DNA of 28,671 bases from Crocosphaera sp. (lineage in GTDB: Bacteria; Cyanobacteriota; Cyanobacteriia; Cyanobacteriales; Microcystaceae), in assembly GCA_030064955.1 (NCBI GenBank), contig JASJDW010000039.1, forward strand, positions 1 to 28,671, written 5' to 3'. Positions 8,674-28,671 of the stretch are shown here, piece after piece. The notes beneath the pieces are model-generated. The model worked only from the letters and a program-made list of their open reading frames with translations, had not been told where the DNA came from and ran no database searches. The position numbers and the translations under genes were made by a program. Numbering within the stretch: the first letter of the stretch is position 1; every line of letters starts with the position of its first letter.

Positions 8674-8711
8674 ATTGATAAGGATAAATTGTGTTAGTTG
8701 TCGAGAAATAT

Positions 8712-9653: not shown

Positions 9654-12600
9654 TTAGTCAAAATCTGCATTAAAACTATCTAATAATATTTTATTTTCTT
9701 CTGTGGGAGTTATGGTTATTTCTGAGAGATTCTGATTAGCATAATTGGGGACATTTTCTATTAAGGTTTGCAATTGATCAAGCAAACGACGAACGGATTT
9801 CTCTGTAAATTGCTGAGAATTATAATCAATGACAAGCAAGAAAGTTGGATATAATTCTACAGTAACCCCAAGGGAATAATTAGTCTGAGAAAAAGATTTG
9901 ACATCTACAATTTTAATTTCTCCTTGATGTAATGATGGATCAATGGGATAATTCTCTACAGTAATAAAGCTTTCAAATAATTGGCTTTCGGGCGTTATAT
10001 CACTCCATTTTTGTATCTGAACCAAAGAATTATATTGATATTCTAAACGTTCTATCTGTTCTTTTTGAAGCTGTTTAAACCAATCTAGCAGACATAACTG
10101 AGGTTGAATAGAAACGCTAACTGGAATAGTATTAATTAATAATCCTACCATAGATTCTACCCCTACTAATTCGGGTGGTCTTCCTGATACTGTTGCACCA
10201 AAAATAATCTCATCTTCTCCACTATAACGACTTAATAAAAAGGCAAAACAACCTTGAAGTACCGTATTAAGGGTTAGATGTTGAGATTGTGTCCAATTGA
10301 TTAATTTTTCGGTTATCTCCGTTGTCAGTTGACTTTGTTCTCTTGCTTGATTTTGATTGATTTGAGTATTTTTATTAGTCAGAGGAAGTTCAATTCCCCA
10401 TTGTGTCGCTTTTTTAATTCCTTTTAGGGATTGTTTCCAGAACTTTTCGGCTTTTGAATCATTGTTTTTGTTTAACCAATTAATATAGTTTTTGTAAGAG
10501 GAAACTGGTGATAATCTGACTTTCTTCTCTTGAGATAAGCTTTGATAAACGCTAAATACTTCTTGAAAAATAATGCTATTACACCACCCATCTAACAGCA
10601 GGTGATGATGACTCCAAATTAAATAATATTGATTATCAGAGAGTCGAAATAAACTCAGACGCATTAAAGGCGCATTGGCAAAAGAAAATCCTTGTTGAGC
10701 ATCAGTTTTCAGATACTTTTCTAAGGCTTTCTCTTGAGAAGATATCGATAAAAACCGCCAATCTTCTTGATACCAAGGCAAAGAAACTTCTGAGGGAATA
10801 ACTTGCAAAGGAGTTACTAAGTTTTGCCAAATAAAAGCACTTTTTAAGCTATCATGACGGTTAATAATTGTTTCCCAAGCTAAGCGAAACTTGTCCTCAT
10901 TTAAGGCACCCGAAAGGGTAAAAACTTTTTGCTGACAGTAAAGGTTAGACTCAGCTTCATAAAGACAGTGGAAAAGTAATCCTTGTTGGAGGGGAGATAA
11001 AGGATAAATATCGGCGATCGCCGGAAATTTCAGGACGATTTTGTCTAATCTTTCTTGAGTTAAATGAGCTAAAGGAAAGTCATCAGGGGTATAATTAGGT
11101 TTACTCTTAAGACAGTCGTCAATTAAAGTTTTTAAAGTATTTATGGTATCTTGCGCTAATTTTTCTATTGTTTCTGGTTGGTATTGCCGAGAATTGTAAG
11201 TCCATTCAAAACGAGTTTGACCCTCAACTACCATAACATCAAGGGTAATACTTGATGTATGCTGTCCTAAACCACTTTTTTCGCTGCCTCGATCATCAAA
11301 TAATAAAGGAAAAATAGAGTCTTCTTGGGTAAATTGACCCAGATAATTAAAACATAATTCAGGTTGTGGTAAATTACTTAATTGAGTCCCTATTTCCTTT
11401 TGCTGATTCAGATAGCGTAACATTCCATAACCGATACCTCGATTGGGAATTTGACGGAGGGTTTCTTTGACCACTTCTAGAGACTGAGAAGGAGAAAAAC
11501 AAGGATCACAAGATAATAATAAAGGAAAACGAGTTGTAAACCAGCCCAAGGTTCGGGACAGATCGATCTCCTCAAATAATTCCTCTCTACCATGTCCTTC
11601 CAACTCTACCCAGAGATAATTGTTTCCTGTCCAGCTTTGATAAGTTTGTAGTAACCCACACAGCAATAACTCATTCATTTGAGTGCGATAATGTTTGGAA
11701 ACTTTGTGCAAAGCTGCGTCTGTGTCTTTAGCATCCAGAAATACAATTACTTTCTCGATCTTTGCCTCAACTTTGCCATTTTGTTGATGAATTCGAGGCA
11801 GATAACTAGGAGAAGCAGGAAATTGGGCTAACCAATAATCTAATTCTGATAAAATACTTTCTGATTGAGCATAATCCTTTAATTTTTTTGACCAATATTG
11901 AAAAGATGTCGTTTTCGCCCCTAACTGTATGTTTTCGCCCCGTTTTACTTGGTTATAAGCTGTATGAAAGTCTTCTAACCAAATTCGCCAAGATACCCCA
12001 TCCATCAACAGATGATGAATAATCACTAATAACCGTGCGCCTCGTTTAACCCCTAAATCAAACCATACTACCCGAAATAAGGGAGGATGCTCTAAATTTA
12101 AGCTATTTTGGACTTGAGTTGCTTGGGTTGCCAGGGTGCTAGAAAGTTCTTTTTCGGGAATATTAGAGAGATCCCGTTTAATAAATGTTATTTTCTCCTT
12201 AATTTCCCCATAATACTGTATCCAACCCGATTTTTCTGGCCGAAAAGATAATTTTAAACTATCATGATGCTCAGCTAACCCTTGAATAACAGTTTCTAAA
12301 TCAGTGACAAGAACATTGGGAGGAATATCTAGGAGAATAGACATATTCCAGTGATGAAGATTAGGAAGGGAGAGTTGAAAAAACCACTGTTGAATGGGGT
12401 TTAAAGGAACTTGACCTTGATTATCTCCTATTTGTAACTTAAACGCTTCAGTTTCAATAATTTTGGCTAATGCTGCAATGGTTTGATGCTCAAATAGATC
12501 AATCGGTTTTAATTTTAAGCCCGCTAATTTAGCCCTGGCAACAATTTGAGTACCAAGAATAGAGTCTCCCCCCAACTCAAAAAAGTTATCTTCAACACCG

Positions 12601-15600
12601 ACTTGTTCAAGATGCAGAATATCTGCCCAGATTTTGGCTAAGGTTCCCTCTTGAGGAGTTCTTGGGGACACATAAGTGGTTTCTACTTGACTTCGGGTAA
12701 TTTCAGGAAGTGGTAACTTTTGTCGATCTAATTTACCGTTGGGTGTTAGGGGAATACGATCCAAAAAGACAAAGCAGTTAGGAATCATAAACTCTGGTAA
12801 GCTTTTTTGCAAAAAATTGCGTAATTCAGAAATTTTTGGCTTATTTGTGGCATAAGATACCACATAAGCCACCAGTAATTTATTTTCATCCGTTTTTTCC
12901 CTAACCATCACCCTTGTATCTCTCACTGACGGATGATTTTTTAATTTTGCTTCCACTTCTCCTAACTCAATACGAAAACCATGAAGCTTTATTTGATGAT
13001 CAATTCTTCCTAAAAATTCAATATTCCCGTCGGGAAGATAGTGTGCTAAATCACCAGTGCGGTAGAGTCGTTGTGATAACTTTATTTTAAAATTTTTGAG
13101 GTTTAATGTTGTGGTGTGACTGGTTTGCATCTTAAATTTTGCTTCTCGATTAAACCATTCACCACGGGTAATTTTTAATTTTAAGTGACTGTTTTTAACT
13201 TTTAGGGTTAACTGTTGATTAAAGGGATGAGACTGAAAACGATCTTGCGTTAAATTTGGTTGATTGAGATAGCCACGGGCTAAATTATCGCCTCCTATAT
13301 AGATTTCTCCTGGAAAACCAACCGGAACAGGACGCAATTGAGAATCTAATACAAATATTTGGGTATTTGGTAAAGGAGATCCCAAGGGAACTGAAGCAGT
13401 GCCTCTGTCTTGACTTTCTTGTGTTACTTGATAAGTGAGAACGCCTACGGTTGTTTCTGTTGGGCCATAATGGTTAACAATTTGGCAATTTGGGGCTAAT
13501 TTTTTGACCTTTTGAACTAATTCCCAAGGGGTTGTTTCACCCCCTAAGACTAAGGTTTTTTTCGGTAAAATTTGTGATGGGTTGGGACTTTCTGAGATTA
13601 ATGCTTGTAAATGACTGGGAACAATTTTTAAATAGTCAATTCCTCTTTGTTGTGATAAATAATCCTCTAATCCTAGGGGATCTGTCATATTTTCTTGAGA
13701 AATAATGTGTAAACAACCTCCATGACATAAGGAGGGGAAAATCATGGTATTCCCTAAGTCTGCCCCAAACGTAGAAATTAATCCATAACTGGCTTTTTTC
13801 GGTAACTGAAGACGGTCTATAATTCCCTGTACATAGTTAACAAGTTGTCTATGTTCGATCGCAACTCCTTTGGGTTTCCCTGTTGATCCAGAGGTATAGA
13901 TGACATAAGCTAAATTTTCTGAGGTTACCTTTATGTCTAAATTAGCTTCACTGTAATGGGAGATAACTGTTTCATCTCCATCTAAGATAACCGTTTGCGC
14001 TGCTAAGGGGGATATTATCGATTTAAGATGTTGCTGGGTGATGACTATTTGAGCTTGGCTATTGTCTACCATGAATTTTAACCGCTCATGGGGTAAAATC
14101 GGATCTAATGGGACATAAGCTCCTCCTGCTTTTAAAATTCCTAGTAATCCTATCAAGATCCAAGGTGATCGCTCAACACAAATTCCGACACAATCATCAG
14201 GTTTGACCCCTAAATGACGTAAATGATGGGCTAATTGGTTAGCTAGGGCATTAAGCTGAGAATAAGTCAGTTTTTCTTCCTCACAAATTACGGCAATGTC
14301 TTGAGGAGTCTGTTTGACTTGAGTTTCAAAAAGATGATGAATACAGGAGTCATTTAGGGAATTTTCCAAGGAATAAGAGATTAAGCTAGGATTAAATTCT
14401 AATAAAATACGTTGCTTTTCATCATCCGTTAAAAGATCTAATTCTTCTATCTTTTGAGTTGGCTTTGCACAGGCATTCATTAATAGTGTGTAATAATTTC
14501 GTAGCCAACCTTCAATAACGTCTGAAGAAAAACTTTTCGTATTGTAGTGAAATTCAATGTCAATTCCCTGAGAATATTGTTGACAAAAAACATTCAATTG
14601 ATAAGGTTGAATACAGGAAAATTCTCGGATTAATGTTCCCTTTATTTCTCCTTGAGCAGTTATTTTATTTGAGTGAAAATCAGTTTCAAATGTAATTCCA
14701 TTTCCGACAAATTTCTCAGCTTCAGGAACAAAATAGTCTTGACATTTGCTTAATTCTTGAACTTTTTGAGAGATTTGCTGACAGAATGTAATAAAATTAA
14801 GGGATGAGTCTACAGGTGTCGACATTGGCAAATATTTTGCCATTAATCCAATACTTTGTGCTAATTCTTCGTGATGACGATTACTAGACCCTAATCCTAC
14901 CGTTACCTCTTCTTCATGAGTTAGTCTTGATAAGAATATTAAAAAGCAACTTAGAAAAAAATCTTGATAAGTAATTTGATATTTTTTAGTCAAACTTTCA
15001 AATAATTGAAAGTCTTTTTGTTCAAGGGTTAAAGTAATAAACCCAGGTTGAAAATTAGCAGCAAATTCATGATTTTTTTGAAGGGTTAGGGGCATTTTTA
15101 ATTCAAAATAACCTGACGAAGTTTGCTGTTGCCAATATTCTCTTCCTTCAGCCGTTTCTGGGGATTCTAGTAACTCATTTTGCCACTCTGAAAAATCCAC
15201 ATATTGGAATGGTTCATCGATTATATTTTCTTCTCTTTTTTGTTCATGGCAAATACTAATTTCCCTGATTAAATGCCTTAAGGAAAAGCGATCAGCTAAT
15301 AAACTTGGCAAACCAATAATCAATGTCAATTCATTAGCTGAACATTGCACTAAAGCAATTTTAAAAAGGGGCATTTTTTCGAGATTTAATGGTCTTTGTA
15401 GCAGATTTTTAAAAATAGCTTCTATTTGTTCTAATTGTTTTTCTTTTGATTCTTTTTGTAAATTATATTGCTCAATGAAGGGAACATAGCTATCTCCAAT
15501 TACTTGCAGAGGAAGGGTGCTTTCTGGCAATTTATAAAAAGTTGTCCGCAAAATTTCCAAGCGTTGAATAACCATTTGCAGAGCATTCATTAATCGCTCT

Positions 15601-15731
15601 TTATCTAGGTGTCCTTCTAACAAAAATGCCCCTTGAGTTCGATAATAATTATTAGAATTCTTGTGATTTAATAACCATAGATATTTTTGCTGAGGGGAGA
15701 GGCGAAATCCTTCTATTTTTTTAGTAATCAT
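9654..15731 (-). CDS. NRPS: His-less C-like (interface-type) domain, then A(Asp code)-T-E-C(DCL-type).
   Basis: ATG at 15731. The N-terminal C-fold domain has C1 (RLSPQQKYLWLL) and C2 (RLEILRTTF) motifs, but C3 is GLPSLLADRFS instead of HHxxxDG. A domain: YTSGSTGKPKG, FGADLGNT, NHYGPTETT, YRTGDLAHY, GRIDHQIKLHG, with code DLTKVGHVGK. T domain: ELGGDSILG. E domain: PLNPIQQWFF and HHLLMDGVSWRI. Terminal C domain: DIYPLSPLQQGLLFH and SHHHLLLDGW. Confidence 0.95.
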   Translation of the reverse strand: MITKKIEGFRLSPQQKYLWLLNHKNSNNYYRTQGAFLLEGHLDKERLMNALQMVIQRLEILRTTFYKLPESTLPLQVIGDSYVPFIEQYNLQKESKEKQLEQIEAIFKNLLQRPLNLEKMPLFKIALVQCSANELTLIIGLPSLLADRFSLRHLIREISICHEQKREENIIDEPFQYVDFSEWQNELLESPETAEGREYWQQQTSSGYFELKMPLTLQKNHEFAANFQPGFITLTLEQKDFQLFESLTKKYQITYQDFFLSCFLIFLSRLTHEEEVTVGLGSSNRHHEELAQSIGLMAKYLPMSTPVDSSLNFITFCQQISQKVQELSKCQDYFVPEAEKFVGNGITFETDFHSNKITAQGEIKGTLIREFSCIQPYQLNVFCQQYSQGIDIEFHYNTKSFSSDVIEGWLRNYYTLLMNACAKPTQKIEELDLLTDDEKQRILLEFNPSLISYSLENSLNDSCIHHLFETQVKQTPQDIAVICEEEKLTYSQLNALANQLAHHLRHLGVKPDDCVGICVERSPWILIGLLGILKAGGAYVPLDPILPHERLKFMVDNSQAQIVITQQHLKSIISPLAAQTVILDGDETVISHYSEANLDIKVTSENLAYVIYTSGSTGKPKGVAIEHRQLVNYVQGIIDRLQLPKKASYGLISTFGADLGNTMIFPSLCHGGCLHIISQENMTDPLGLEDYLSQQRGIDYLKIVPSHLQALISESPNPSQILPKKTLVLGGETTPWELVQKVKKLAPNCQIVNHYGPTETTVGVLTYQVTQESQDRGTASVPLGSPLPNTQIFVLDSQLRPVPVGFPGEIYIGGDNLARGYLNQPNLTQDRFQSHPFNQQLTLKVKNSHLKLKITRGEWFNREAKFKMQTSHTTTLNLKNFKIKLSQRLYRTGDLAHYLPDGNIEFLGRIDHQIKLHGFRIELGEVEAKLKNHPSVRDTRVMVREKTDENKLLVAYVVSYATNKPKISELRNFLQKSLPEFMIPNCFVFLDRIPLTPNGKLDRQKLPLPEITRSQVETTYVSPRTPQEGTLAKIWADILHLEQVGVEDNFFELGGDSILGTQIVARAKLAGLKLKPIDLFEHQTIAALAKIIETEAFKLQIGDNQGQVPLNPIQQWFFQLSLPNLHHWNMSILLDIPPNVLVTDLETVIQGLAEHHDSLKLSFRPEKSGWIQYYGEIKEKITFIKRDLSNIPEKELSSTLATQATQVQNSLNLEHPPLFRVVWFDLGVKRGARLLVIIHHLLMDGVSWRIWLEDFHTAYNQVKRGENIQLGAKTTSFQYWSKKLKDYAQSESILSELDYWLAQFPASPSYLPRIHQQNGKVEAKIEKVIVFLDAKDTDAALHKVSKHYRTQMNELLLCGLLQTYQSWTGNNYLWVELEGHGREELFEEIDLSRTLGWFTTRFPLLLSCDPCFSPSQSLEVVKETLRQIPNRGIGYGMLRYLNQQKEIGTQLSNLPQPELCFNYLGQFTQEDSIFPLLFDDRGSEKSGLGQHTSSITLDVMVVEGQTRFEWTYNSRQYQPETIEKLAQDTINTLKTLIDDCLKSKPNYTPDDFPLAHLTQERLDKIVLKFPAIADIYPLSPLQQGLLFHCLYEAESNLYCQQKVFTLSGALNEDKFRLAWETIINRHDSLKSAFIWQNLVTPLQVIPSEVSLPWYQEDWRFLSISSQEKALEKYLKTDAQQGFSFANAPLMRLSLFRLSDNQYYLIWSHHHLLLDGWCNSIIFQEVFSVYQSLSQEKKVRLSPVSSYKNYINWLNKNNDSKAEKFWKQSLKGIKKATQWGIELPLTNKNTQINQNQAREQSQLTTEITEKLINWTQSQHLTLNTVLQGCFAFLLSRYSGEDEIIFGATVSGRPPELVGVESMVGLLINTIPVSVSIQPQLCLLDWFKQLQKEQIERLEYQYNSLVQIQKWSDITPESQLFESFITVENYPIDPSLHQGEIKIVDVKSFSQTNYSLGVTVELYPTFLLVIDYNSQQFTEKSVRRLLDQLQTLIENVPNYANQNLSEITITPTEENKILLDSFNADFD

Positions 15732-16640: not shown

Positions 16641-16686
16641 AATTGTTCTTAAGTTTTTCAAGATTTTTATGGGGGTTAAACTTGTC

Positions 16687-17793: not shown

Positions 17794-18357
17794 CTAGAGA
17801 TTTTTAGCTAAGTCCAATGTAAATTTTTGTTGAACACCTGTCTTGACAGAATCAGACAAATATTTAAAAACTTTACGATAGCGAAGACGGTAAAATAATA
17901 TATAAATTCCAATTTTATGATGCCAAGGTACATAATCAAATTCTTCGATAACATTTGCCATATGTAAGATAACTAAATTGAGCCATTCTGAATAACTAAT
18001 CGTGATTTTATCAGAGGTTAACCGATTAATAATACAAATTTCCGACCTTTGGTTAGGTTGAATGTCAAAATAATTTTCTCGTTGTTTACAAATGCAAAAT
18101 AAATAGACAATTTTCTCAGCTTCTTCTCCAATCGCTTCTTGTAATTCTTTTCGTTGACAAAATTTTAAAATGTAGTTTTTTTGGGTTCCTTCTGTGCCAT
18201 AAAAAGAATGAAAATACCCAGCCAAACAGAGAGTAGGAGCACATTTCCATTTTTTTAATAAATCTCCGGTTCCGACTAAATGCTCATAAAACGTCCTTTT
18301 TGTATGAACAATTCTATGGGTTTGATAAGATTTGAGCAGATATAAAACATTTTCCAT
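17794..18357 (-). CDS. Hypothetical protein with an HD-domain-like His-rich N-terminal motif. Function is unknown.
   Basis: ATG at 18357. The 187-aa ORF is co-directional and tightly packed between cluster genes. The motif string HRIVHTKRTFYEHLVGTGDLL...LAGYFHSFYGTEG resembles the H...HD metal motif of HD-superfamily proteins, but with HS instead of HD. I cannot make a confident family assignment from sequence alone. Confidence 0.6.
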   Translation of the reverse strand: MENVLYLLKSYQTHRIVHTKRTFYEHLVGTGDLLKKWKCAPTLCLAGYFHSFYGTEGTQKNYILKFCQRKELQEAIGEEAEKIVYLFCICKQRENYFDIQPNQRSEICIINRLTSDKITISYSEWLNLVILHMANVIEEFDYVPWHHKIGIYILFYRLRYRKVFKYLSDSVKTGVQQKFTLDLAKNL

Positions 18358-18407: not shown

Positions 18408-21400
18408 TTAACTGTTAGTTTTGCGTCGCATTCTTTTTAATCTTTTTTGGGCAATTCCTTCTAATTGCTCTGCTTTACCAAATTGTCTTCTTTGTTCTAA
18501 TTCTATTAGTTTTTGTTTGAGAGTAAGCAAAGGAATATTTGGATTGTCTATAATAGTTTTCAATAAACTTATAAATTGCTCGATCCAGTTTTGAATTGTT
18601 TCTGGTTTAAATAAATCTGCATTATAGGTTACAGTTAAGGTCAAATTATCTTCATTTTCTGCTAAATTCCAAGTTAAATCTCTTCGAGTTGCACCCGAAA
18701 AATTTAACACTGCTTTAACATCAAGATCGGTAAATTGTAATCCTTGACCAAATTTATCTAAATTAAATTGAACATTAATCAAAGGGGGACGACTGGGATC
18801 TCGTTTTAATTTCAATTTTTGTAAAAGTTGAGAATAGGGATAAGTTTGATGTTCATAAGCTTCTAATAGGGTTTGTTTTATATAAGCTAAATGTTGAGAA
18901 AAAGTTGTTTTTGGCTCACGAAAACGCACTGGTAATACATTAACACAATACCCGACTAATTTTTTTCTACCTGTCGCTAATTGTCCGGCTGCTGAAATTC
19001 CAATTACTCGATCATTTTGCTGAGATAAATGCTGTAAAAGCACATCAAAAATAGCCAAGAGTATCATAAATAAAGTTACTCCTTGTTGATGCTCTAAATT
19101 TTTTATTTTGTCTTTTAAACTACTCTCAATAATTCCAAATTCCTGTTTCCCTTGATAGGTTTGTATGGGAGGACGAGGGAAGTCCATGGGTAAGTCTAAT
19201 TGAGGAATAATATCATTAAATTGTTGTAACCAATAACTTTCATTCTTTGAATTATATAGATTAGTTTGGTGATTAAGAGATACATATTCACTAAATTGAT
19301 CTGGTTGTTTTAATGTGGTTTTAATTCCCTTTTTTTGTGCATTATAAAGTGCAGCTAATTCCTGCATCATAAGATCAATTGACCAACCATCTGAGATAAT
19401 ATGATGAATCGTCAATACCAACCAATGTAACTCTGAAGAAACTTTAACAATATGCCATCTTAATGGGGGATAATCACTCATATTAAAAGTTTCTTGCACG
19501 GTTTTATTTAACCAGGCTGTCATTTCAGCTAGTTCATTTTTGCTAAAATCTAAATAGGGAATTTCAATAGTATACTGAGGTAAAATTTCTTGAGTTTCTC
19601 CCTCAACATCAATTAGAATGCGTAAAGCTTCATGACGATTCACAATCGTTTGGATCGCTTGATTTAAGGCTTTAATATCTAATTTTCCTGTTAATTCTAA
19701 GCGTAATGAGTCGTTATAAGCAACTGATCCCTCTTCTTGGAGTTGTGCTAATGTCCAAAGTTGTTTTTGTGCTAACGTTAAGGGGATTTGATGACGAGAA
19801 CGAGCAATAATAAGGGATTGTTGATTAATTAAAGAACTATCAGGGGTTGGTAAAGAAATTATCTCAGTAAATCCTGTCTCTTGTAAAATTTTCTGCCATT
19901 TTTTTACGGATATCAGGGGATAAGAAGGACGTAATTCTTGATCTGTAAATTTCCACCATCCTTCTGTTAACCCAAAAATCAAATCTAACCAACGCTGGGG
20001 AGACGTTCCTTCCATTAAAATGATAATTCCCCCTGGCATTAATAGTTGATGAATATGTTTTAAACTCTGAATTAGGTTAGCGGTACTATGAATTACATTA
20101 GCGGCAATAATAATATGATAGGTCTTTCTTCCTAAGTCTTGGCTGTGGGGTTCCTGTTCAATGTCTAAACTGCCATAATGCAGACAAGAATAATGGTGAA
20201 AAACTTGTTTTGCACGGTTAATAAAGAGGGGAGAAAGGTCGGTAAAATAATATTCTACAGACGTTTGGGATAAATTAGGAACAATATAGGCAGTTGTTCC
20301 CCCTGTTCCTGCTCCTATCTCTAAAATACGGGCTTTTTCGCCTTCATTAATTGAGTCTAAAGCGAAACTAACAGTTTTTTCAATTAAAGTATTCAGAAAA
20401 ACTGCCATGGGAGATGTTTTATAAAGTTGAGTCGCAGCACTTAAGTCACCTTGAGGAAATATTAACTGTAGGGGATTAACTTTACCTTGTAATACCTCTG
20501 CTAAAGCGGAACCACAACGGTTGAGTAACGTAATTTCTGCTTGTAAAAAAGGATATTGAGTGGCAATTTCTTCTGCTAATATTTTAGATTCAATTATCTC
20601 TGGCTTTTTAATAATTTCTCCACCGGAAGGGGTAAAGTGGAAAATATCTTCTTCTGCTAAAATTTCTAACAACCGTTGCCAAAGTGAAGAAAATGAAGGC
20701 ATAATTCCCAATTTTTTCTTTATTTCTGGAGTCAATTTTTCCCCCTGAATAAAGTTGATTCCCAATTGCTCAAAAGCTTCGATGATATAGGCTAAACTCA
20801 GCTTTTCTATTTGTGCAAATCCTTGGGGATATTCCTGCAATTCTGAGTGCTGAGAAAGATGACTTATTAAAGGAAGTAAACGCCGATAAATAATGTTAGG
20901 AGATAATCGGTTTGCACTCACAGAAGAATTAATCGTTTCTTGAGTCTTTTTAGTGGGAAAAAAGCCTCCTTCTCGTAATTCTATGACACTAGATTTAATC
21001 GCTTCTTTCAAAAAATCAATATCTTCATCCGTATGTGCGCTAGAGAGAAAACAATTACGTCCTTCCCAAATATAAATGCCCTTTTCTAATAAGTGATAGT
21101 AGAGTAAATCTAAATTTTCTGGGGATGAAAAGCGAAACAATGAACCAAAATAAACAATTTTAAGAGGAATTTCCGCTTTTTCAAAATAATGATTCAACTG
21201 ATTAGCCAACTCAGTTGTCCGTCTATTTAATTGTTGTTGTAAACCTTCTCCCGCTTCTTTCAGATATTGTAAAATAGCATAAGCCCCAGCCATACCTAAA
21301 TGATTTTTATTAAAAGTTCCAGCAAAAAATGTTTTTTCGGCGCGAGGATAGGAATTATCCCCATAATTCCATTCTCCTCCATCAATGGCATCTAAATAAC

Positions 21401-24400
21401 GCGATTTACCAGCTACTACCCCAATTGGTAAACCGCCTCCTACAATTTTTCCATAAGTAACCAAATCCGCTTCAATGCCAAACCATTTTTGCGCCCCCCC
21501 TGGATGAATCCGAAATCCTAACAATACCTCATCAAAAATTAGAGGAATTTGGGCTGTTTGGGTGAAAGTGCGTAATTTTTGTAAAAAAGCTTTCGGTTGT
21601 ACATGGGGACGACGACTGGGAACCGGTTCTACTAAAACTGCGGCTAAATCATCTTGATGGTGAGATAAAATTTCTAAACTACGGGGGCTATCGTACTCTA
21701 ACATCAGCACGTCTTTGACCGCATTTTCAGTGATTCCCGCTACCATTGGAACAGTTTCCATTGTCCCGTGAGGTGCAACGGCTAAAACCCCATCAAAATG
21801 TCCGTGATAAGATCCCCTAAATAAAGCGATTTTGCGCCGTCCTGTGACAGTTCTCGCTAATCTTAGGGCTGTCATGACCGCTTCAGTCCCAGAATTACAA
21901 AATAAAACCCGTTCAACCCCTGTTAAATCTTGGATTAATTGGGCGACTTCAGCGGCTAAATTAGATTGAGGCCCAATTTGTAACCCTTTTTCTAGCTGTT
22001 TCGCGATCGCTTGACTAATAACAGGGGCATTATGCCCTAATAACAATACGCCAAACCCCATTGTAATATCTAAATATTCATTACCATCGATGTCCCAAAA
22101 TCGAGATCCCTGAGCTTTTTCTCCGACAATGGGATAAAGGAGTTCTTTGATTGAAGGGCGAAATCCAGCGACGGCTCGACTATCTGCAAGAAGAGGACGG
22201 AATGCGTTAGCTTTTGCTTTAGATTTCGCAGTTTTGGCATTATAACGCTTAATTAACTCATTTACATGGTTTTGTTGTTGAGGGGTAAAATTAACCGTTT
22301 GAGGGGTTTGTCTCCAGGTTTTTTTTTTCTCTGTTTCCGGCAAAGATAAAGAATTATTAGAATTTTGAGGAACAACGGGCAATTTTGGGGATTGATTTAG
22401 GGGTTTTCCCTGTAATAATGCCAATTGTTGAGACATTACCTCTAATTGCTGAGTAATAATTCTTTCGAGATTAGTTTCTGCTAAAGTAGAATTAAGCAAG
22501 GGCTTGGACAGAGATTTTTGACTAATTTCTTGAATTTCTGGCTTAGATGGTTCTAAAATTGGCGAAGAAGGAATTTCTTGGGCGATATGTTCTCCTAATG
22601 CTTCAATTGTTGCCCATACTTCAAATAATTGGCTAATATTAATCTTTAATCCATAGTTATTTTCAATGGCTCGCACCACATCTAATAAAACCAGGGAATC
22701 TGCTCCCATTTCTAAAAATGATTGACGATAATCTAATTTACTGGGGTCAATATCGAGTAAATTGGCGACTAAATTCCTTAATTCTTGAATAATCTGCTTT
22801 TTATGATGATTATCTTCTTCTGGTGTCAGGGGGTTATCAGTGGCTTGCTTCGGAAAATTTTGAGAGTCTGTCATAGTTTTTTGGGGATTTTCGAGATAAT
22901 TAGGAGAATTTTGGCTATATTCCCGTTCAATCTTTTCTGTTTCTTCCAGCCAATAGAATTGACGTTGAAAAGGATAAGTTGGTAAAGATAAGCGATGTCG
23001 GTGATAGTCCTGATCCCATCCTTTCCAGTTGATCTTTGCCCCTTGAACAGATAAATGAGCCATACTTGAGGCTAAAATTGTCCAATCTTCTGCTCCTTCA
23101 ACTAAAGAAGGAAGCCAAATTCCTTGCTGCCAACGTTGTCCTAATTTAGATAATATTGGTTTAGCCCCAATTTCTAAAAATAACTGGTATTTTTGCCCTA
23201 ATAATGTCTGAATTCCTTCTTTAAAACGTACTGGGTTACAGGTTTGTTGTCCCCAATAATTGCCATCAGGAATTTTATCTTCTGGCCACAATTTACCGGT
23301 TAAATTAGAAATTAAAGGAATTTTTGGCTTCTGAAAGGAAATGTCTGCCATACTGGTTTGCCATTCCTCTAAAATCGGCTCTATTAGGGGAGAGTGAAAC
23401 CCATGAGAAACCGTTAAAGGATGGTTTTTAATGCCTTCTCTCTCCAAAATCTCGATGATTTTCTCAATCGGTTCGTCTCTACCTGAAATAACCGTATTTT
23501 CTTCTCCATTTAAACTGCCGATTACGACCCAAGGAGACGATAGTTGCATTAGTATCGCTTTAATCAAATCTTCAGAGGCAAAAACAGCTACCATTCGCCC
23601 TTTTTCTGGTAAATTTTCGATTAATTTCGCTCTTATGGCAATTAATTTTAACCCTTCTTCTAACGTAAACACGTCAGCGAGACACGCAGCAACATACTCT
23701 CCTAGACTGTGGCCAATCATCGCAGCAGGTTTAATTCCCCAGGATAACCACATTTGAGCCAGGGCATATTCTAGGGAAAATAAAGCTGTTTGGGTATAAA
23801 TTGGTCTTTGAATGATATTTTGTGGAGAATCATTAGAATATAAAACAGAAAGCAAAGATTCCTCTAAATAAGGCTCTAAAATTTCCTCACAACGTTGCAA
23901 CCATCGCCGAAAAGTCGGTTGAGTTTCGTACAATTGCTTACCCATTCCCCAATATTGAGATCCTTGTCCTGTGAAGAGAAAGACCACTGGCGTTGGTTTT
24001 CGTTTGCTAAACTCTCCTGAAACGAGATGGGGATCTTTGGTGTTATTAAGAAAATTCTGTAATGAATCGCCGATTTGTTGTCGATTTTTACCAAATACTG
24101 CTAAACGCTGCTTAAAATGAGAGCGTCCTGTATTAGCTGTCCAACAAATATCCCCTAAGCTCAGATGAGCGTTATTGTGAAGAAAGTCATGGTAACGATA
24201 CGCTAATGTTTTTAAGGCAGGTTCAGTTTTAGCAGATAAGGTTAATAGGTGTTGGAGACGTTCAGGATTATTGGAGACAATAACAGACTCTGGTGCTTCT
24301 TCGAGAATGATATGACAATTCGTCCCGCCAAAACTAAATCCGCTCACCCCTGCAATCCTTTTTCCTGGTTCAGATACCCACGGTTGATTCTCTGTCGGGA

Positions 24401-25589
24401 TGAAAAAGCGGCTATCAGTCATCTCTAAATGAGGATTTAAGTCCTTCAGATGTAGATGCGGAAAAAACTGCCGTTTTTGCAACGATAAGATCACCTTGAT
24501 GATCCCGGCAATTCCGGCTGCATTTTCTAAATGTCCAATATTCGTCTTTACTGAGCCAATCGCACATTTTTCCTCAGGTTTGCGCCCTTCTTCTAATACA
24601 GCTTTAATCGCTCTTATTTCCACTGGATCTCCCAAGGGCGTTCCTGTTCCGTGTGCTTCTAGATAACTTACCTGATTCGGGTAAATTCCGGCGTTTTTTA
24701 AGGCTTTTTTGATAACGGCTTGCTGTGCTAACCCATTAGGGGCTGTTAACCCATTACTCGCCCCATCATGATTAATGGCTGATCCCCGAATAATGGCTAA
24801 AAGGCGATCGCCTGTTTCTAAGGCATCGGATAATCGCTTAATGGCAATCATTCCACACCCTTCTCCTCGCACATAACCATCCGCTTTCGCATCAAAGGTT
24901 TTACACCGTCCTTCTCCTGACATCATCTGTGCTTGGGAAAAAGTAATGGTCATATCAGGTGAAATCATTAAACTGACTCCCCCGGCTAAGGCGAGATCGC
25001 ATTCTCTTTGTTGTAAACTTTGGCACGCTAAATGAACGGCGACTAAAGAAGAAGAACAAGCCGTTTCGACAGCAAGGGAAGGGCCATGAAGATCGAGAAA
25101 ATAGGAGACACGATTAGCCGCTAAACTCAAGGTTAACCCGGTACCATGATAAGCATTAATGCGCTCCAAATCCTGACATAATAAGCGTCCATAGTCAAAA
25201 TTACCAATGCCAACAAATACCCCTGTTTGACTTCCCTTCAGGGAAATTGGAGCAATCCCTGCATTTTCTAAACATTCCCAGGAGACCTCCATCACTAAAC
25301 GCTGTTGTGGATCGATTCTCGTGGCCTCTTTGGGGGAAATATTGAAGAAATGCGGGTCAAAATCTCCGATCTGCTCTAAAAATCCTCCCCAACGACTATT
25401 GGTTTTTCCCGTCGTTTGCGGCTCAGGATGATAATGTTGTGAGATTGACCAACGATCTGATGGCACTTGTGTAATCCCATCAAGTCCTTTCACCAATAAT
25501 TGTTCAAAGGCGGCCGGAGCGGGCGATCGCGGAAAGCGACATCCCATTCCGATAATGGCAAAGAACTGTGGGGCAGATGGCTGATTCAT
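18408..25589 (-). CDS. Hybrid PKS/NRPS: KS-AT-ACP-aminotransferase(class III, PLP)-cMT-C. It is a beta-amino fatty acid forming module.
   Basis: ATG at 25589. KS: TACSSSLVAVH, EAHGTGTPLGDP, NIGHLENAAG. AT: FTGQGSQ, GHSLGE, HGFHS (malonyl-type). ACP: LEMGADSL. Aminotransferase: CNSGTEAVM, FDEV, YGKIVGGGLP (PLP Lys1381). Methyltransferase: ILEIGAGTGGTT, YFTDLS, IIAANVIHST, LLMPGGIIILME, FGLTEGWWKF, which is the PKS C-MT pattern. C domain: HHIISDGWS. There are no KR, DH or ER motifs. Confidence 0.95.
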   Translation of the reverse strand: MNQPSAPQFFAIIGMGCRFPRSPAPAAFEQLLVKGLDGITQVPSDRWSISQHYHPEPQTTGKTNSRWGGFLEQIGDFDPHFFNISPKEATRIDPQQRLVMEVSWECLENAGIAPISLKGSQTGVFVGIGNFDYGRLLCQDLERINAYHGTGLTLSLAANRVSYFLDLHGPSLAVETACSSSLVAVHLACQSLQQRECDLALAGGVSLMISPDMTITFSQAQMMSGEGRCKTFDAKADGYVRGEGCGMIAIKRLSDALETGDRLLAIIRGSAINHDGASNGLTAPNGLAQQAVIKKALKNAGIYPNQVSYLEAHGTGTPLGDPVEIRAIKAVLEEGRKPEEKCAIGSVKTNIGHLENAAGIAGIIKVILSLQKRQFFPHLHLKDLNPHLEMTDSRFFIPTENQPWVSEPGKRIAGVSGFSFGGTNCHIILEEAPESVIVSNNPERLQHLLTLSAKTEPALKTLAYRYHDFLHNNAHLSLGDICWTANTGRSHFKQRLAVFGKNRQQIGDSLQNFLNNTKDPHLVSGEFSKRKPTPVVFLFTGQGSQYWGMGKQLYETQPTFRRWLQRCEEILEPYLEESLLSVLYSNDSPQNIIQRPIYTQTALFSLEYALAQMWLSWGIKPAAMIGHSLGEYVAACLADVFTLEEGLKLIAIRAKLIENLPEKGRMVAVFASEDLIKAILMQLSSPWVVIGSLNGEENTVISGRDEPIEKIIEILEREGIKNHPLTVSHGFHSPLIEPILEEWQTSMADISFQKPKIPLISNLTGKLWPEDKIPDGNYWGQQTCNPVRFKEGIQTLLGQKYQLFLEIGAKPILSKLGQRWQQGIWLPSLVEGAEDWTILASSMAHLSVQGAKINWKGWDQDYHRHRLSLPTYPFQRQFYWLEETEKIEREYSQNSPNYLENPQKTMTDSQNFPKQATDNPLTPEEDNHHKKQIIQELRNLVANLLDIDPSKLDYRQSFLEMGADSLVLLDVVRAIENNYGLKINISQLFEVWATIEALGEHIAQEIPSSPILEPSKPEIQEISQKSLSKPLLNSTLAETNLERIITQQLEVMSQQLALLQGKPLNQSPKLPVVPQNSNNSLSLPETEKKKTWRQTPQTVNFTPQQQNHVNELIKRYNAKTAKSKAKANAFRPLLADSRAVAGFRPSIKELLYPIVGEKAQGSRFWDIDGNEYLDITMGFGVLLLGHNAPVISQAIAKQLEKGLQIGPQSNLAAEVAQLIQDLTGVERVLFCNSGTEAVMTALRLARTVTGRRKIALFRGSYHGHFDGVLAVAPHGTMETVPMVAGITENAVKDVLMLEYDSPRSLEILSHHQDDLAAVLVEPVPSRRPHVQPKAFLQKLRTFTQTAQIPLIFDEVLLGFRIHPGGAQKWFGIEADLVTYGKIVGGGLPIGVVAGKSRYLDAIDGGEWNYGDNSYPRAEKTFFAGTFNKNHLGMAGAYAILQYLKEAGEGLQQQLNRRTTELANQLNHYFEKAEIPLKIVYFGSLFRFSSPENLDLLYYHLLEKGIYIWEGRNCFLSSAHTDEDIDFLKEAIKSSVIELREGGFFPTKKTQETINSSVSANRLSPNIIYRRLLPLISHLSQHSELQEYPQGFAQIEKLSLAYIIEAFEQLGINFIQGEKLTPEIKKKLGIMPSFSSLWQRLLEILAEEDIFHFTPSGGEIIKKPEIIESKILAEEIATQYPFLQAEITLLNRCGSALAEVLQGKVNPLQLIFPQGDLSAATQLYKTSPMAVFLNTLIEKTVSFALDSINEGEKARILEIGAGTGGTTAYIVPNLSQTSVEYYFTDLSPLFINRAKQVFHHYSCLHYGSLDIEQEPHSQDLGRKTYHIIIAANVIHSTANLIQSLKHIHQLLMPGGIIILMEGTSPQRWLDLIFGLTEGWWKFTDQELRPSYPLISVKKWQKILQETGFTEIISLPTPDSSLINQQSLIIARSRHQIPLTLAQKQLWTLAQLQEEGSVAYNDSLRLELTGKLDIKALNQAIQTIVNRHEALRILIDVEGETQEILPQYTIEIPYLDFSKNELAEMTAWLNKTVQETFNMSDYPPLRWHIVKVSSELHWLVLTIHHIISDGWSIDLMMQELAALYNAQKKGIKTTLKQPDQFSEYVSLNHQTNLYNSKNESYWLQQFNDIIPQLDLPMDFPRPPIQTYQGKQEFGIIESSLKDKIKNLEHQQGVTLFMILLAIFDVLLQHLSQQNDRVIGISAAGQLATGRKKLVGYCVNVLPVRFREPKTTFSQHLAYIKQTLLEAYEHQTYPYSQLLQKLKLKRDPSRPPLINVQFNLDKFGQGLQFTDLDVKAVLNFSGATRRDLTWNLAENEDNLTLTVTYNADLFKPETIQNWIEQFISLLKTIIDNPNIPLLTLKQKLIELEQRRQFGKAEQLEGIAQKRLKRMRRKTNS

Positions 25590-25602
25590 AGATAAATATT
25601 CA

Positions 25603-27051
25603 TTAAATAAGTTTTTTTTGCGCTAATTTCTCAGATAAAGTATCAATATTAGGATATTCGTACATTAAAGCGGGGTTAAGGTGGTTTCCTAACCAATCAC
25701 TGAGATCTCCTATCATTCCCACCCCTTCTGCGGAGGATAAACCATAGCTTTGAAAGGAACTGGTAATGTCGATTTCTTCTTCATCTATTTCTAAGAGTTC
25801 TGCTAAATAGGCGATTAACCAAGTTTCTATTTCAGAGGAGGTGTTAGCCCGTGTTGAGGTAGACTTAATCTCATTGTTTGAGCTTTGATGGCTATTTTTG
25901 CGAGAAAGATTACCTACTAATTGGATATATTCCTCCATTGCTTCCTGGTTGCTCATTCCTCGATATTGATTCCAGGTACTCCATTGGATATACTTGCGAG
26001 GATGTAGAATAGGGTTAGGTTCGCTTTCTTGGCAATCCCCTTCAATGGCTTGTTTTTCTAGGGCATAAATGTCTAGTTTTTGTTTATCTTCAGGAATCTC
26101 GACTTGCTCGAATTTTACTTGATTTAAACAGGTTTGAAATTGTAATTCGAGATCGTTTAAATCATGTCCTTGGCGAATTAAATTATGTCCATATTTATCT
26201 TCTCCTGAGACTAATAAACAGTAATGTCGCTGAATATTATGTCCATTTTCATCAATAAAATTCCCTTGCCAACGATAAGGATAAACTTGGGTACTAGGAC
26301 GCACATAACGCCCAATAATTGCTAAACGGCGACGGTTAGAGCGATTCGGAAATGAGCGGTGCATGACTTTTTCGGTAAAAATAATGGCTTGTCCTGCTTT
26401 AATTGGAACGGTTTCTAAGGGCCAATCATTTTCATTAAAGTCATAGGAAAGGGAATATTTTTGTTCCCTTTGCCAGACAGTTTTATGGGCACTAATTCCG
26501 GCAAATACTCCTTCTTTGGCAGGAATACTAGCGGGTAACATGGGAAAGATTTTTTGATGGGAACCGTTAGCAAACTGCATACAACCATTCTCTAAGTCTG
26601 CATCGTCTAAAGCAACCCAAACTGTTAGATTAATCGAGTCTTCATTCGCATCATAAACTAGGGTTTTTTTCTGATAATCAATATCACTAGACGTATAATA
26701 TTCCTTAGCTTGATGCCATTTAATTTCTCCTTGCCCTGGCAATTTACAAAATACGTTAGTATACCATAACAAGAGATCATTTCCTGCAATTTGCTGAACT
26801 CTTTTGACCAGATCTAAATCTTGAAATAAATTAGCAATGGGTTGATGGAATAAATGTAAATCTCTTGGAGTTTCCAAATTAAATACATTGTTATAAAACC
26901 CCATGATTTCTTGTCCGTCTGCTTCAACGATCAAGCGACTATAGGTTTCTAAACAGTTTTTAGCATCAGTCAGTTTTGAGGATTCAAAGATGTCTAAAGG
27001 TCCAACCCATCCCTTTTCTTGAAAATGATTAATCTCCTTTAATGTCAACAT
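25603..27051 (-). CDS. HctB-like tridomain: PhyH-family Fe(II)/2OG halogenase (His-x-Ala), acyl-CoA-binding-protein (ACBP) domain, then ACP.
   Basis: ATG at 27051. GEIKWHQAKEYY gives His113-x-Ala115 where PhyH hydroxylases have WHQD. The distal motif is VMHRSFPNRSNRRR (His231). Residues ~300-385 (LDIYALEKQAIEGD...RKYIQWSTWNQYRGMSNQEAMEEYIQLV) align with canonical ACBP (IYSHYKQATVGD...[26 protein letters not shown]). The C-terminal carrier motif is SYGLSSAEG. Confidence 0.85.
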   Translation of the reverse strand: MLTLKEINHFQEKGWVGPLDIFESSKLTDAKNCLETYSRLIVEADGQEIMGFYNNVFNLETPRDLHLFHQPIANLFQDLDLVKRVQQIAGNDLLLWYTNVFCKLPGQGEIKWHQAKEYYTSSDIDYQKKTLVYDANEDSINLTVWVALDDADLENGCMQFANGSHQKIFPMLPASIPAKEGVFAGISAHKTVWQREQKYSLSYDFNENDWPLETVPIKAGQAIIFTEKVMHRSFPNRSNRRRLAIIGRYVRPSTQVYPYRWQGNFIDENGHNIQRHYCLLVSGEDKYGHNLIRQGHDLNDLELQFQTCLNQVKFEQVEIPEDKQKLDIYALEKQAIEGDCQESEPNPILHPRKYIQWSTWNQYRGMSNQEAMEEYIQLVGNLSRKNSHQSSNNEIKSTSTRANTSSEIETWLIAYLAELLEIDEEEIDITSSFQSYGLSSAEGVGMIGDLSDWLGNHLNPALMYEYPNIDTLSEKLAQKKLI

Positions 27052-27066: not shown

Positions 27067-28671
27067 TTATGTAGATAAAATAAGCTTTTTTTGTTGAGAT
27101 GGTAACGGGTTTAATTGATGATGTAGGAATTGTTGACGACAAGTTTGACGCTGAATTTTGCCGCTAGAGGTTTTCGATAAACTTCCCTGTCTAATTAAAA
27201 CAATCTGATACACCCGTAAATCATGTTCTGCTGCGATCGCTTCTCGAATTCTCCCTTTGACTTGAGCCACCTCTAAATCTTTGCTGTGGCTGCGTTTTAT
27301 TTCTTGCACAACCACTAAACGTTCTTCTCCCTTGATTTCTACTGAAAAAGCTGCACCAAATCCTTCTCGTAAAGCGGGATGGCTTTTTTCTACCGTTAGC
27401 TCAATATCTTGGGGATAATGATTGCGTCCTTCTATAATAATCAAGTCTTTGAGTCTTCCCGTCACAAATAATTGTCCTTCATAGAAAAATCCTAAATCAC
27501 CAGTTCGCAAAAAAGGGCCTTCTCCTGTGTCCTGACGATAAGCTTGAAAGATTAGCTTAGTAGCTTGGGGATTATTCCAATATCCTTGAGCAACAGTCGC
27601 TCCACGTACCCAAATTTCTCCGATCTCTGTGGGTTGACACCCTGTTAGATGCTGAGGATGAACAATCTGGATTTGAGTATCAATTTCACTGCTACCACAT
27701 CCGACTTGGATTTGTGTTGGTAAATTTTTGGGTGGTGTGACTTGCTCTTGCTCTGTTCCTAATGCTTCTTTGACTACTTTTACCTGATGTTGTTCTAAGG
27801 CTTCTGTTTCTAGAGCTAAAAACAAAGGAGACTCTGCTTGCCTAAGTGCCGTAACTTTTAAGGTAGCTTCTGCTAACCCATATCCTGGGGAAAATGTTGA
27901 TTGTTTAAAACCATAAGGTGCAAAGGTTCGACTAAATAATTCTAGGGTTTCGGCCCTGACCCGTTGCGCACCGTTAAGTGCCATTTGCCAGCAACTTAAG
28001 TCTAAATCCTTGGCATCGGTGGGTTTAAATTTTCGCACACATAGATCATAAGCAAAATTAGGTGCGGCACTATGGGTGGCTTGGAAACGGGAAATTATTT
28101 TTAACCAGTTAATCGGTTTGAGTAGAAATGTTACAGGAGAGAGTAAATAGCAAGGAATTCCTACCAACAGAGGGGTTAAAATTCCATAGACTAACCCCAA
28201 ATCATGAAAAGTTGGCAACCAAGAAACGATTTTACTATCCTGACTATGATTCCAACCGCGATCGAGATCTTCACAGTTGATCATTAAATTACCATGACTG
28301 ACCATGACCCCTTTTGGCTCACCTGTAGAACCAGAGGTATATTGGAGTAAAGCTAGGGTTTCTGAGTTTATTTTTAGGGAATTCCCGTTTCTCTGGGTAA
28401 GATTAATAGGACTTGTCGTATCTAACCAAATTAAATGACCTAAATCTCGCCACTTATCTTTGTTTTTGGCTATTTTACTGGTGGTTAAAGCAAATTTTGC
28501 CTGTGCATTGCTAACAATTGAGTGCAACCGTTTTAAAGATTGATTAGGGCGCGGAGGATAAGCAGGAACCGCAACCATTCCAGCAGCAAAACAACCAAAT
28601 AAGGCACGAATAAACTCTAAACCAGGAGGATACAATAGTAAGACGCGATCCCCAGCCGCTCCTAACTGTTG
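27067..28671 (-). CDS. Fatty acyl-AMP ligase (FAAL), 5'-truncated by the window edge.
   Basis: The track start at 28635 is a TTG inside the gene. The frame stays open to 28671 and reads QQLGAAGDRVLLLYPPGLEF. Motifs: LQYTSGSTGEPKG, GYGLAEATL, LRTGDLGFF, GRLKDLIIIEGRNHYPQDIE, SGKIQR. It lies directly upstream of a carrier protein and a PKS, the usual FAAL context. Confidence 0.9.
   Translation of the reverse strand, partial: QQLGAAGDRVLLLYPPGLEFIRALFGCFAAGMVAVPAYPPRPNQSLKRLHSIVSNAQAKFALTTSKIAKNKDKWRDLGHLIWLDTTSPINLTQRNGNSLKINSETLALLQYTSGSTGEPKGVMVSHGNLMINCEDLDRGWNHSQDSKIVSWLPTFHDLGLVYGILTPLLVGIPCYLLSPVTFLLKPINWLKIISRFQATHSAAPNFAYDLCVRKFKPTDAKDLDLSCWQMALNGAQRVRAETLELFSRTFAPYGFKQSTFSPGYGLAEATLKVTALRQAESPLFLALETEALEQHQVKVVKEALGTEQEQVTPPKNLPTQIQVGCGSSEIDTQIQIVHPQHLTGCQPTEIGEIWVRGATVAQGYWNNPQATKLIFQAYRQDTGEGPFLRTGDLGFFYEGQLFVTGRLKDLIIIEGRNHYPQDIELTVEKSHPALREGFGAAFSVEIKGEERLVVVQEIKRSHSKDLEVAQVKGRIREAIAAEHDLRVYQIVLIRQGSLSKTSSGKIQRQTCRQQFLHHQLNPLPSQQKKLILST

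Follow-up and report, generated by a model that had tools for sequence, protein, structure and literature searches.

A contig of Crocosphaera sp. (JASJDW010000039.1, assembly GCA_030064955.1) carries a polyketide synthase (PKS) gene in which the acyl carrier protein (ACP) domain is followed by an aminotransferase (AMT), a methyltransferase (MT) and a condensation (C) domain. Such a gene raises the question which acyl unit is made by the encoded protein, and whether the order of AMT and MT stands for a new biosynthetic logic. The stretch of DNA analysed here, called the window in the following, comprises 28,671 nucleotides, and all of its eleven large open reading frames (ORFs) are located on the minus strand. 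We consider it likely that the gene encodes a one-module protein at the interface of PKS with nonribosomal peptide synthetase (NRPS), which would build a 3-amino-2-methyl fatty acyl thioester and hand it over to a peptide assembly line.

Domain order and class of the methyltransferase

The PKS gene is one uninterrupted ORF of 2393 amino acids. Six metagenome contigs, of which the longest has 68.8 kb (ENA ERZ23486730), yielded gene calls with exactly this protein sequence. Searches with Pfam and NCBIfam profiles reveal the domain order ketosynthase (KS), acyltransferase (AT), ACP, AMT, MT and C (Table 1). A preliminary description of the region 18510-22202, which corresponds to residues ~1130-2360 and therewith to AMT, MT and C, had proposed the order ACP-AMT-MT-C from the letters alone, and the profile searches agree with it. 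The E-values of the AMT (3e-54), of the MT against the C-methyltransferase (C-MT) of CurJ (2e-98) and of the C domain (9e-91) rule out chance matches. As the same description had stated, ketoreductase (KR), dehydratase (DH) and enoylreductase (ER) domains are missing: none of these families scored in the protein with Pfam or NCBIfam. Pfam also detects a single PP-binding stretch and no second carrier domain. The motifs quoted at that time each occur once, namely YGKIVGGG (with Lys1381), ILEIGAGTGGTT (1755), YFTDLS (1781), AANVIHST (with His1834), LLMPGG (1849) and FGLTEGWWKF (1872). The base composition provides no clear evidence that the MT was inserted recently.

The MT is made up of an N-terminal helical lid and a class I core that binds S-adenosylmethionine (SAM). 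The lid matches HTH_51 at residues 1585-1649 with a bit score under the Pfam cut-off, while the core is recognized by Methyltransf_12 (1756-1856) and also by Methyltransf_23, 25, 11 and 31. The SAM motif LEIGAGTGG, which begins at residue 1756, is intact. For a comparison with proteins of solved structure, residues 1560-1929 were excised and searched with phmmer against all PDB sequences. The best match is the C-MT of CurJ (5THY; 46% identity by blastp), of which residues 37-401 of 405 are covered. It is followed by DisA (1e-43), the CMeT domain of the citrinin synthase PksCT, AprA MT2 (4e-41), PsoF, a protein named only "putative methyltransferase" and LovB. These seven matches have E-values of 5e-26 or below, and the names of six identify them as C-MTs from PKS or PKS-NRPS systems. 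When matches up to E = 10 are admitted, the next one follows at E 0.036, and even at E < 10 neither an NRPS N-MT nor a PKS O-MT is found among the PDB relatives.

Two residues of the core, His1834 in AANVIHST and Glu1860 in ILMEGT, are located 26 positions apart and are invariant in 66/66 aligned MT domains, including all 22 which follow an AMT (25-57% identity). We take this pair, mapped by homology, to be the counterpart of the catalytic dyad reported for CurJ and PksCT. PKS C-MTs use a His-Glu dyad on ACP-carried beta-ketoacyl substrates (PMC9821293). The MT of the window shares with CurJ the fold and the catalytic residues over a full-length alignment. It differs in location: in CurJ the C-MT is found within the reductive region, upstream of the ACP, whereas that of the window lies downstream of both ACP and AMT. 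Judged by its sequence, the MT is a PKS-type C-MT of the CurJ/PksCT class and does not belong to the N- or O-MT classes, which is the assignment already given in the preliminary description.

A neighbor-joining tree with 200 bootstraps was calculated for the MT domains. A protein search with the MT domain alone, which returned short fragments only and missed the full-length relatives, served as the source of canonical C-MTs. The MT domains following an AMT are scattered among the canonical C-MTs and were monophyletic in 0/200 bootstraps. CurJ groups with two ACP-MT-AMT proteins in 200/200 replicates. This pattern fits a repeated shuffling of ordinary C-MTs and not a specialised new MT lineage, with the deep nodes unresolved.

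The class of the MT also bears on the alternative which had been offered earlier, the N-methylation of the beta-amine. A domain with C-MT fold would have been re-purposed to act after the transamination, so that gene order equals reaction order. The physical order of AMT and MT suits this idea, a His/Glu base would in principle be capable of removing a proton from an ammonium group, and N-methyl-beta-amino fatty acids such as N-Me-Ahda are known from microginins (PMC12250027). However, because the MT belongs to the C-MT class and its SAM motif and His/Glu pair are intact, this reaction is unlikely. N-MTs are absent from its PDB relatives with E < 10, the C-MT-like active-site residues are invariant across all genomic contexts, and without a clade of their own the AMT-linked MTs give no sign of neofunctionalisation. 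Moreover, microginins employ a separate stand-alone MT (PMC12250027). We therefore regard N-methylation as very improbable. If it were true, the MT would be the first PKS domain of C-MT fold re-purposed for nitrogen, and AMT-MT would represent a portable "aminate-then-methylate" didomain.

The MT could also be a catalytically dead structural remnant, in which case the product would be a plain 3-amino fatty acid as in iturins and laxaphycins. Silent tailoring domains do occur in PKSs, and the location behind the AMT is unusual. The SAM motif, His1834 and Glu1860 are, however, all intact. Their conservation in 22 AMT-MT homologues, the most distant with 25% identity, indicates that catalysis is under purifying selection. 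A silent MT has for this reason little probability.

Predicted reactions and their order

The catalytic motifs of the remaining domains are intact as well. The KS contains Cys178, His313 and His353 according to a motif scan and is by sequence an elongating ketosynthase. The AT carries the motifs GHSLGE and HGFHS. In the HAFH/YASH rule HAFH is the signature of malonyl-type ATs, and if HGFH is read as a HAFH-like variant it points to malonyl-CoA as predicted extender. Since the AT is predicted to be malonyl-specific, the methyl branch should derive from SAM and not from methylmalonyl-CoA. The phosphopantetheine attachment site of the ACP is Ser965 in GADSL. Directly after this ACP (935-1002), in a module devoid of reductive domains, follows the AMT, for which Pfam Aminotran_3 covers residues 1153-1509 and the NCBIfam glutamate-1-semialdehyde (GSA) aminotransferase models reach 1537. 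NCBIfam GSA-aminomutase models score up to 9e-84, and the lysine binding pyridoxal phosphate (PLP) is Lys1381 in TYGKIVGGGLP, which includes the GSA-aminomutase-type motif GKIVGGG. In an alignment of six AMT-MT proteins the AMT ends with a conserved ELREGGF(F/L)P, and the linker to the lid of the MT is short, poorly conserved and of different length between homologues. In the C domain the motif HHIISDGWS is intact. Another 37 residues follow until the end of the protein, which contains neither an adenylation (A) nor a peptidyl carrier protein (PCP) domain in cis; the next A-PCP is part of a separate NRPS encoded three genes downstream.

For the substrate, the sequence of reactions, the single methylation, the amine donor and the product we propose the following course. 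A fatty acid would be activated by a fatty acyl-AMP ligase (FAAL) and loaded onto the ACP of an HctB-like halogenase protein, where a chlorination may happen. The KS would then elongate the fatty acyl chain with malonyl-ACP to a 3-ketoacyl thioester on Ser965. Next, the C-MT would use SAM and His1834/Glu1860 to methylate C-2 of this beta-keto thioester, before the PLP-dependent AMT turns the 3-keto group into a 3-amine with the help of Lys1381. In the last reaction the C domain (HHIISDG) would condense this thioester with an Asp-type residue bound to the PCP of the following NRPS. The order in which the swinging ACP visits the domains would be that of the chemistry and not that of the gene. 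After amination C-2 is no longer activated, therefore the methylation must precede the transamination, an argument already made in the preliminary description which holds. For this the MT would have to win the competition with the AMT, or the AMT would have to favour the ketone that is already methylated. Together with the C-MT class and the malonyl-type AT, this order of chemistry makes a 2-methyl-3-amino fatty acyl unit the best prediction, in line with the first proposal.

A C-MT acting twice would give a 2,2-dimethyl-3-amino fatty acyl unit instead. The gem-dimethylating C-MTs DisA (1e-43) and AprA MT2 (4e-41) are among the PDB relatives, and within the module only the AMT competes for the second alpha-proton. 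On the other hand CurJ, which methylates once, is the nearest solved relative by 55 orders of magnitude, and the functional analogue McyE methylates once as well. 2,2-Dimethyl-3-amino fatty acids are not known to occur in cyanobacteria, whereas 2-methyl-3-amino acids are described (PMC6835634). A gem-dimethylation is for these reasons unlikely, though less so than the other alternatives.

The same final product would result if malonyl-ACP was methylated before the condensation, as the MT domains of AprA do. AprA MT2 is a significant relative with 4e-41, and one single ACP bears both the malonyl and the beta-ketoacyl species. The MT of the window is far nearer to CurJ (2e-98), which reportedly prefers beta-ketoacyl-ACP, and the literature models such PKS C-MTs on beta-ketoacyl substrates (PMC9821293). 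We give this variant hardly any credit.

Several points nevertheless weigh against methylation of the beta-ketoacyl thioester followed by transamination. The order AMT before MT would equally suit an MT that acts after the amination, and a sequence cannot separate mono- from di-methylation. The malonyl assignment of the AT comes from a motif rule, and the positions of the dyad from homology and not from a structure of the 2393-aa protein. The members of the architecture are orphans known from their sequences.

Related systems and distribution of the AMT-MT order

The preliminary description had seen no established logic for an AMT combined with a C-MT and had placed C-MT domains normally between AT and ACP. 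These statements are not supported in view of McyE and NdaF, the textbook case of enzymes making a 2-methyl-3-amino acid (Adda). A representative with the order ACP-MT-AMT from the database search described below (P0251, 3480 aa) is McyE of Nostoc sp. 152 (AGZ05272.1). Pfam reveals the order KS-AT-ACP-cMT-AMT-C-A-PCP-C for this protein, with the ACP at residues 953-1019, the C-MT (cMT in the domain strings) at 1043-1317 and the AMT at 1549-1871, so that the C-MT stands behind the ACP and beside the AMT. McyE completes Adda, which is 3-amino-9-methoxy-2,6,8-trimethyl-10-phenyldeca-4,6-dienoic acid (PMC6835634). An MT-AMT stretch between PKS and NRPS modules was noted by Ansari et al. in 2008, who tabulated McyE and NdaF as proteins that bear a C-MT (PMC2613160); we take these two to be their MT-AMT cases. 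It is McyE that establishes a post-ACP C-MT beside an AMT as a source of an alpha-methyl-beta-amino acyl thioester.

The protein of the window resembles McyE and NdaF in a KS-AT-ACP part without KR, DH and ER, in a C-MT and a class-III AMT behind the ACP followed by a C domain, and in the 2-methyl-3-amino acyl thioester which is predicted here to be passed to an NRPS. The two domains are however exchanged, ACP-AMT-cMT in contrast to ACP-cMT-AMT, and the MT domains of McyE and of the window protein are 38% identical. McyE carries on in cis with A-PCP-C whereas the window protein stops after the C domain. The starter of McyE is a phenyl-polyketide, that of the window a FAAL-loaded and probably halogenated fatty acid.

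With respect to layout a counterpart is PuwE of the puwainaphycin pathway, in which an aminotransferase and a monooxygenase between PKS and NRPS modules make a 3-amino-2-hydroxy acid (PMC4219810). In a PuwE-like protein (P0280) Pfam places the AMT at 1185-1544, Bac_luciferase at 1644-1944 and the C domain at 1982-2420. Both are FAAL-primed lipopeptide routes with KS-AT-ACP-AMT and a C-2-modifying domain between AMT and C. The luciferase-like monooxygenase leads to a 2-hydroxy group, whereas the C-MT of the window is predicted to lead to a 2-methyl group. New is therefore only the AMT-cMT order of the two post-ACP domains; the predicted chemistry is that of McyE and NdaF in a PuwE-like layout. 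Beyond McyE and NdaF no literature was found on the AMT-cMT order or on genes for 3-amino-2-methyl acids, a search which left subscription journals mostly uncovered so that absence is no proof. AMT-MT is missing from a 2013 survey of embedded PLP domains, in which AMT-C, AMT-Luc-C, AMT-FMO and AMT-SDH appear.

MycA from mycosubtilin and iturin synthesis shares the ACP-AMT-C junction, the conversion of a beta-ketoacyl-ACP to a beta-aminoacyl-ACP and the Aminotran_3/GSA-aminomutase-like family (PMC3870968). In MycA the AMT is directly followed by C without an MT, whereas in the window protein a C-MT of 362 residues lies between them. A further parallel is hectochlorin, which contains a chlorinated 2-methyl-3-hydroxy acid, and the unit predicted for the window is its 3-amino analogue. 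HctD uses a KR for the 3-hydroxy group; the window has an AMT instead of the KR, and its C-MT follows the ACP. Common to HctA/HctB/HctD and the window are an acyl-activating enzyme, a halogenase-ACBP-ACP tridomain protein (for HctB: PMC10088813) and a PKS module with a C-MT.

Two other cluster types were considered and rejected. Microginin (mic) clusters encode a dimetal-carboxylate halogenase and a stand-alone SAM MT (MicH) and lead to a 2-hydroxy-3-amino acid (PMC12250027). A microginin-like cluster with N-methylated Ahda does not agree with the window, which has PhyH-type and WelO5-type iron/2-oxoglutarate (Fe/2OG) enzymes and an embedded C-MT. Nor does a cyanochelin-type siderophore cluster, which has cMT and Ox domains, while an aminotransferase is unmentioned in the respective paper.

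The AMT-MT stretch was used as query against 1.84 billion cluster representatives (clusters of 50% identity), and three arrangements were found: AT-MT-ACP plus AMT with the MT at its canonical position, ACP-MT-AMT and ACP-AMT-MT. Among the best 150 representatives, a ranking which favours MT-containing proteins, the AMT is directly followed by a C domain in 97 cases and by an MT in about 20. In another 16 an insert of ~400-460 aa precedes the C domain, which in P0280, the only one checked, is the luciferase-like monooxygenase. One genome from each GTDB species was scanned with an alignment spanning the AMT-MT junction, which confirmed 395 AMT loci; the best 80 of these were examined, and in 28 the whole AMT-linker-MT query was matched.

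The closest loci, with 64-65% junction identity, are two from Okeania sp. KiyG1, one from a Trichodesmium metagenome-assembled genome (MAG) and one from a MAG labelled Crocinitomicaceae. They share the cassette WelO5-like / FAAL / halogenase-ACBP-ACP / KS-AT-ACP-AMT-MT-C. Downstream of it, the genes DUF6817 / TauD / WelO5-like / C*-A-PCP-E-C (E, epimerization domain; C*, C-like domain) are common to the loci of Okeania and Trichodesmium; in the Crocinitomicaceae-labelled MAG the downstream genes are inverted. Its contig (L006, JBIPMW010000343.1), which was binned as "Crocinitomicaceae bacterium", carries the WelO5-FAAL-HctB-like-PKS cassette with up to 84% domain identity to the window and is probably a mis-binned cyanobacterial contig.

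The same upstream cassette with ~50% junction identity was found in several Nostoc, Anabaena sp. CCY 9613, Fischerella sp. PCC 9431, Roholtiella and Mastigocoleus. Rhizonema, Brasilonema, Scytonema and Nostoc sp. LPT show the arrangement FAAL ... KS-AT-ACP-AMT-MT-C-A-PCP-C-A... instead. Similar modules are present in SAR324, alphaproteobacterial and Sphingomonas genomes, and the same module in a Colwellia protein. Altogether the KS-AT-ACP-AMT-cMT-C module was seen in representatives of about 25 cyanobacterial species and in a few genomes from outside the cyanobacteria.

The domains are not always part of one protein. In one metagenome locus (L003, 5628-13107) KS-AT-ACP and AMT-MT-C are encoded by two genes, in another (L004) ACP-AMT-MT forms its own protein, and in JGI 3300067032 (P0003) a free-standing AMT-MT protein of 945 aa is encoded between multimodular PKS genes. 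These varied gene splits suggest that the AMT-MT pair can work in trans. The AMT-MT didomain is recurrent, conserved and portable, and the recurrence of the order argues for selection on a working domain.

The surrounding gene cluster and its meaning

The genes around the PKS gene are summarized in Table 1. The HctB-like protein has the motif H-Q-A at residues 113-115, and HxA is the halogenase signature, as opposed to the HxD/E of hydroxylases. Its gene is kept directly upstream of the PKS gene in the Okeania, Trichodesmium, Nostoc, Fischerella and Mastigocoleus loci. It is probably from the HctB-like protein that the KS receives the (chlorinated) fatty acyl starter. All three WelO5-family paralogues carry HxG (HTG, HKG and HFG), like the carrier-independent halogenase WelO5, and one WelO5-like copy is always found upstream of the FAAL gene in the related loci. 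The WelO5 family is known from hapalindole-type alkaloids and is unusual within a FAAL-PKS-NRPS lipopeptide cluster. FAAL, the HctB-like halogenase-ACP protein and the WelO5-like halogenases together lead to the prediction of an orphan chlorinated lipopeptide. On the same contig, upstream of the window and a few kb past the halogenase genes, a LanM class II lanthipeptide synthetase with DUF4135 and LANC_like domains is encoded (L001 94-3375, minus strand), which probably belongs to a separate neighbouring cluster.

Table 1. Features of the PKS protein and of the neighbouring genes. Positions refer to the window unless L001 is given.
Feature	Position	Strand	Residues	Remarks
PKS gene	18408..25589	-	1-2393	KS-AT-ACP-AMT-MT-C
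KS	24447..25559	-	11-381	Pfam ketoacyl-synt 3e-94, Ketoacyl-synt_C 1e-43
AT	23136..23984	-	536-818	Pfam Acyl_transf_1 1e-52
ACP (sole one)	22584..22787	-	935-1002	Pfam PP-binding 3e-14
AMT, class-III, PLP-dependent	20979..22133	-	1153-1537	Pfam Aminotran_3 3e-54
PLP lysine of AMT	21447-21449	-	Lys1381	
AMT-MT linker	20889..20978	-	1538-1567	alignment of six AMT-MT proteins
PKS-type C-MT, complete	19803..20888	-	1568-1929	phmmer against PDB
Putative dyad histidine	20088-20090	-	His1834	
Putative dyad glutamate	20010-20012	-	Glu1860	
C domain, C-terminal	18522..19796	-	1932-2356	Pfam Condensation 9e-91
FAAL	27067..28635	-		Pfam AMP-binding, AMP-dom_DIP2-like; truncated at window end, full gene 609 aa on contig
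HctB-like tridomain protein	25603..27051	-		PhyH-type Fe/2OG, ACBP and ACP; Pfam PhyH, ACBP, PP-binding
DUF6817 protein	17794-18357	-		187 aa; directly after PKS gene
TauD-family gene	16687-17721	-		
WelO5-family paralogue	15828-16661	-		within window
WelO5-family paralogue	L001 4139-4924	-		beyond window, same contig
WelO5-family paralogue	L001 5889-6746	+		beyond window, same contig
NRPS	9654..15731	-		C-like, A, PCP, E, C (Pfam); A code DLTKVGHVGK
C-like domain of this NRPS	14382-15731	-		first domain
GLPSLLADRFS in C-like domain	15282-15314	-		
Lys-rich insertion in A domain	13071-13211	-		47 residues
Asp/Glu racemase gene	8712-9452	-		adjoins stand-alone A-PCP
Stand-alone A-PCP	6790-8718	-		A code DARHLSLMTK
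Terminal module C-A-PCP-TE	2627-6850	-		TubC-type N-terminal docking domain; A code DASTIAAVCK; TE, thioesterase
Asparagine-synthase (AsnB) homologue	628-2511	-		

Downstream of the PKS gene the DUF6817 gene occupies the same position in the Okeania, Trichodesmium and Mastigocoleus loci. The following NRPS is predicted to supply the acceptor for the C domain of the PKS. Its first C-like domain lacks HHxxxDG and has GLPSLLADRFS instead, and the succession of the C domain of the PKS and this C-like domain is kept in the Okeania and Trichodesmium loci. In siderophore NRPSs so-called interface domains recruit an Asp beta-hydroxylase, and given the TauD-family gene and the Asp-type A code the C-like domain may have the same role.

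The A-domain codes were extracted by a rule calibrated to reproduce the McyE code DPRHSGVVGK. The code of this first A domain is presumably the canonical one for Asp. That of the stand-alone A-PCP follows the DxRH pattern which in microcystin goes with iso-linked acidic residues, DARH... in McyB2 being used for iso-linked D-MeAsp. The A-PCP and the adjoining racemase resemble McyB2 and McyF, and this analogy suggests a side-chain-linked D-acidic residue. The code of the terminal module is in our reading Tyr-like. The listed TTG start of this ORF overlaps the preceding gene by 61 nt, and the true start is probably located further downstream. The AsnB homologue might amidate a free carboxylate. 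The first A domain contains a Lys-rich insertion, LTLKVKNSHLKLKITRGEWFNREAKFKMQTSHTTTLNLKNFKIKLSQ, which neither the two remaining A domains of the window nor that of McyE possess. Taken as a lead only, these predictions suggest (Cl)n-3-amino-2-methylacyl - (beta-OH?)-D-Asp - iso-Asp/Glu - Tyr as the form of the product, which would be a short chlorinated lipopeptide.

Adda, Amha and Map are described as 2-methyl-3-amino acids of cyanobacterial peptides (PMC6835634). Among the corresponding fatty acids, Amha, Map, Amoa and their relatives occur in many marine cyanobacterial peptides, and no assignment of their genes was found in the literature. The route of McyE and NdaF to Adda is the sole worked-out one to a 2-methyl-3-amino unit. 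The domain order found here leaves the understanding of PKS chemistry unchanged, since it is already known that substrates tethered to an ACP visit domains in an order other than that of the gene. The interval between AMT and C can house a monooxygenase or a C-MT, and this is helpful where the C-2 substituent of beta-amino lipopeptides is to be engineered. KS-AT-ACP-AMT-cMT-C is a recognisable and widespread signature, present also in Okeania and Trichodesmium, which could tie 2-methyl-3-amino compounds to their genes and reveal new chlorinated lipopeptides. It is the mark of an orphan family of lipopeptide clusters, probably halogenated ones, in cyanobacteria of ecological importance.

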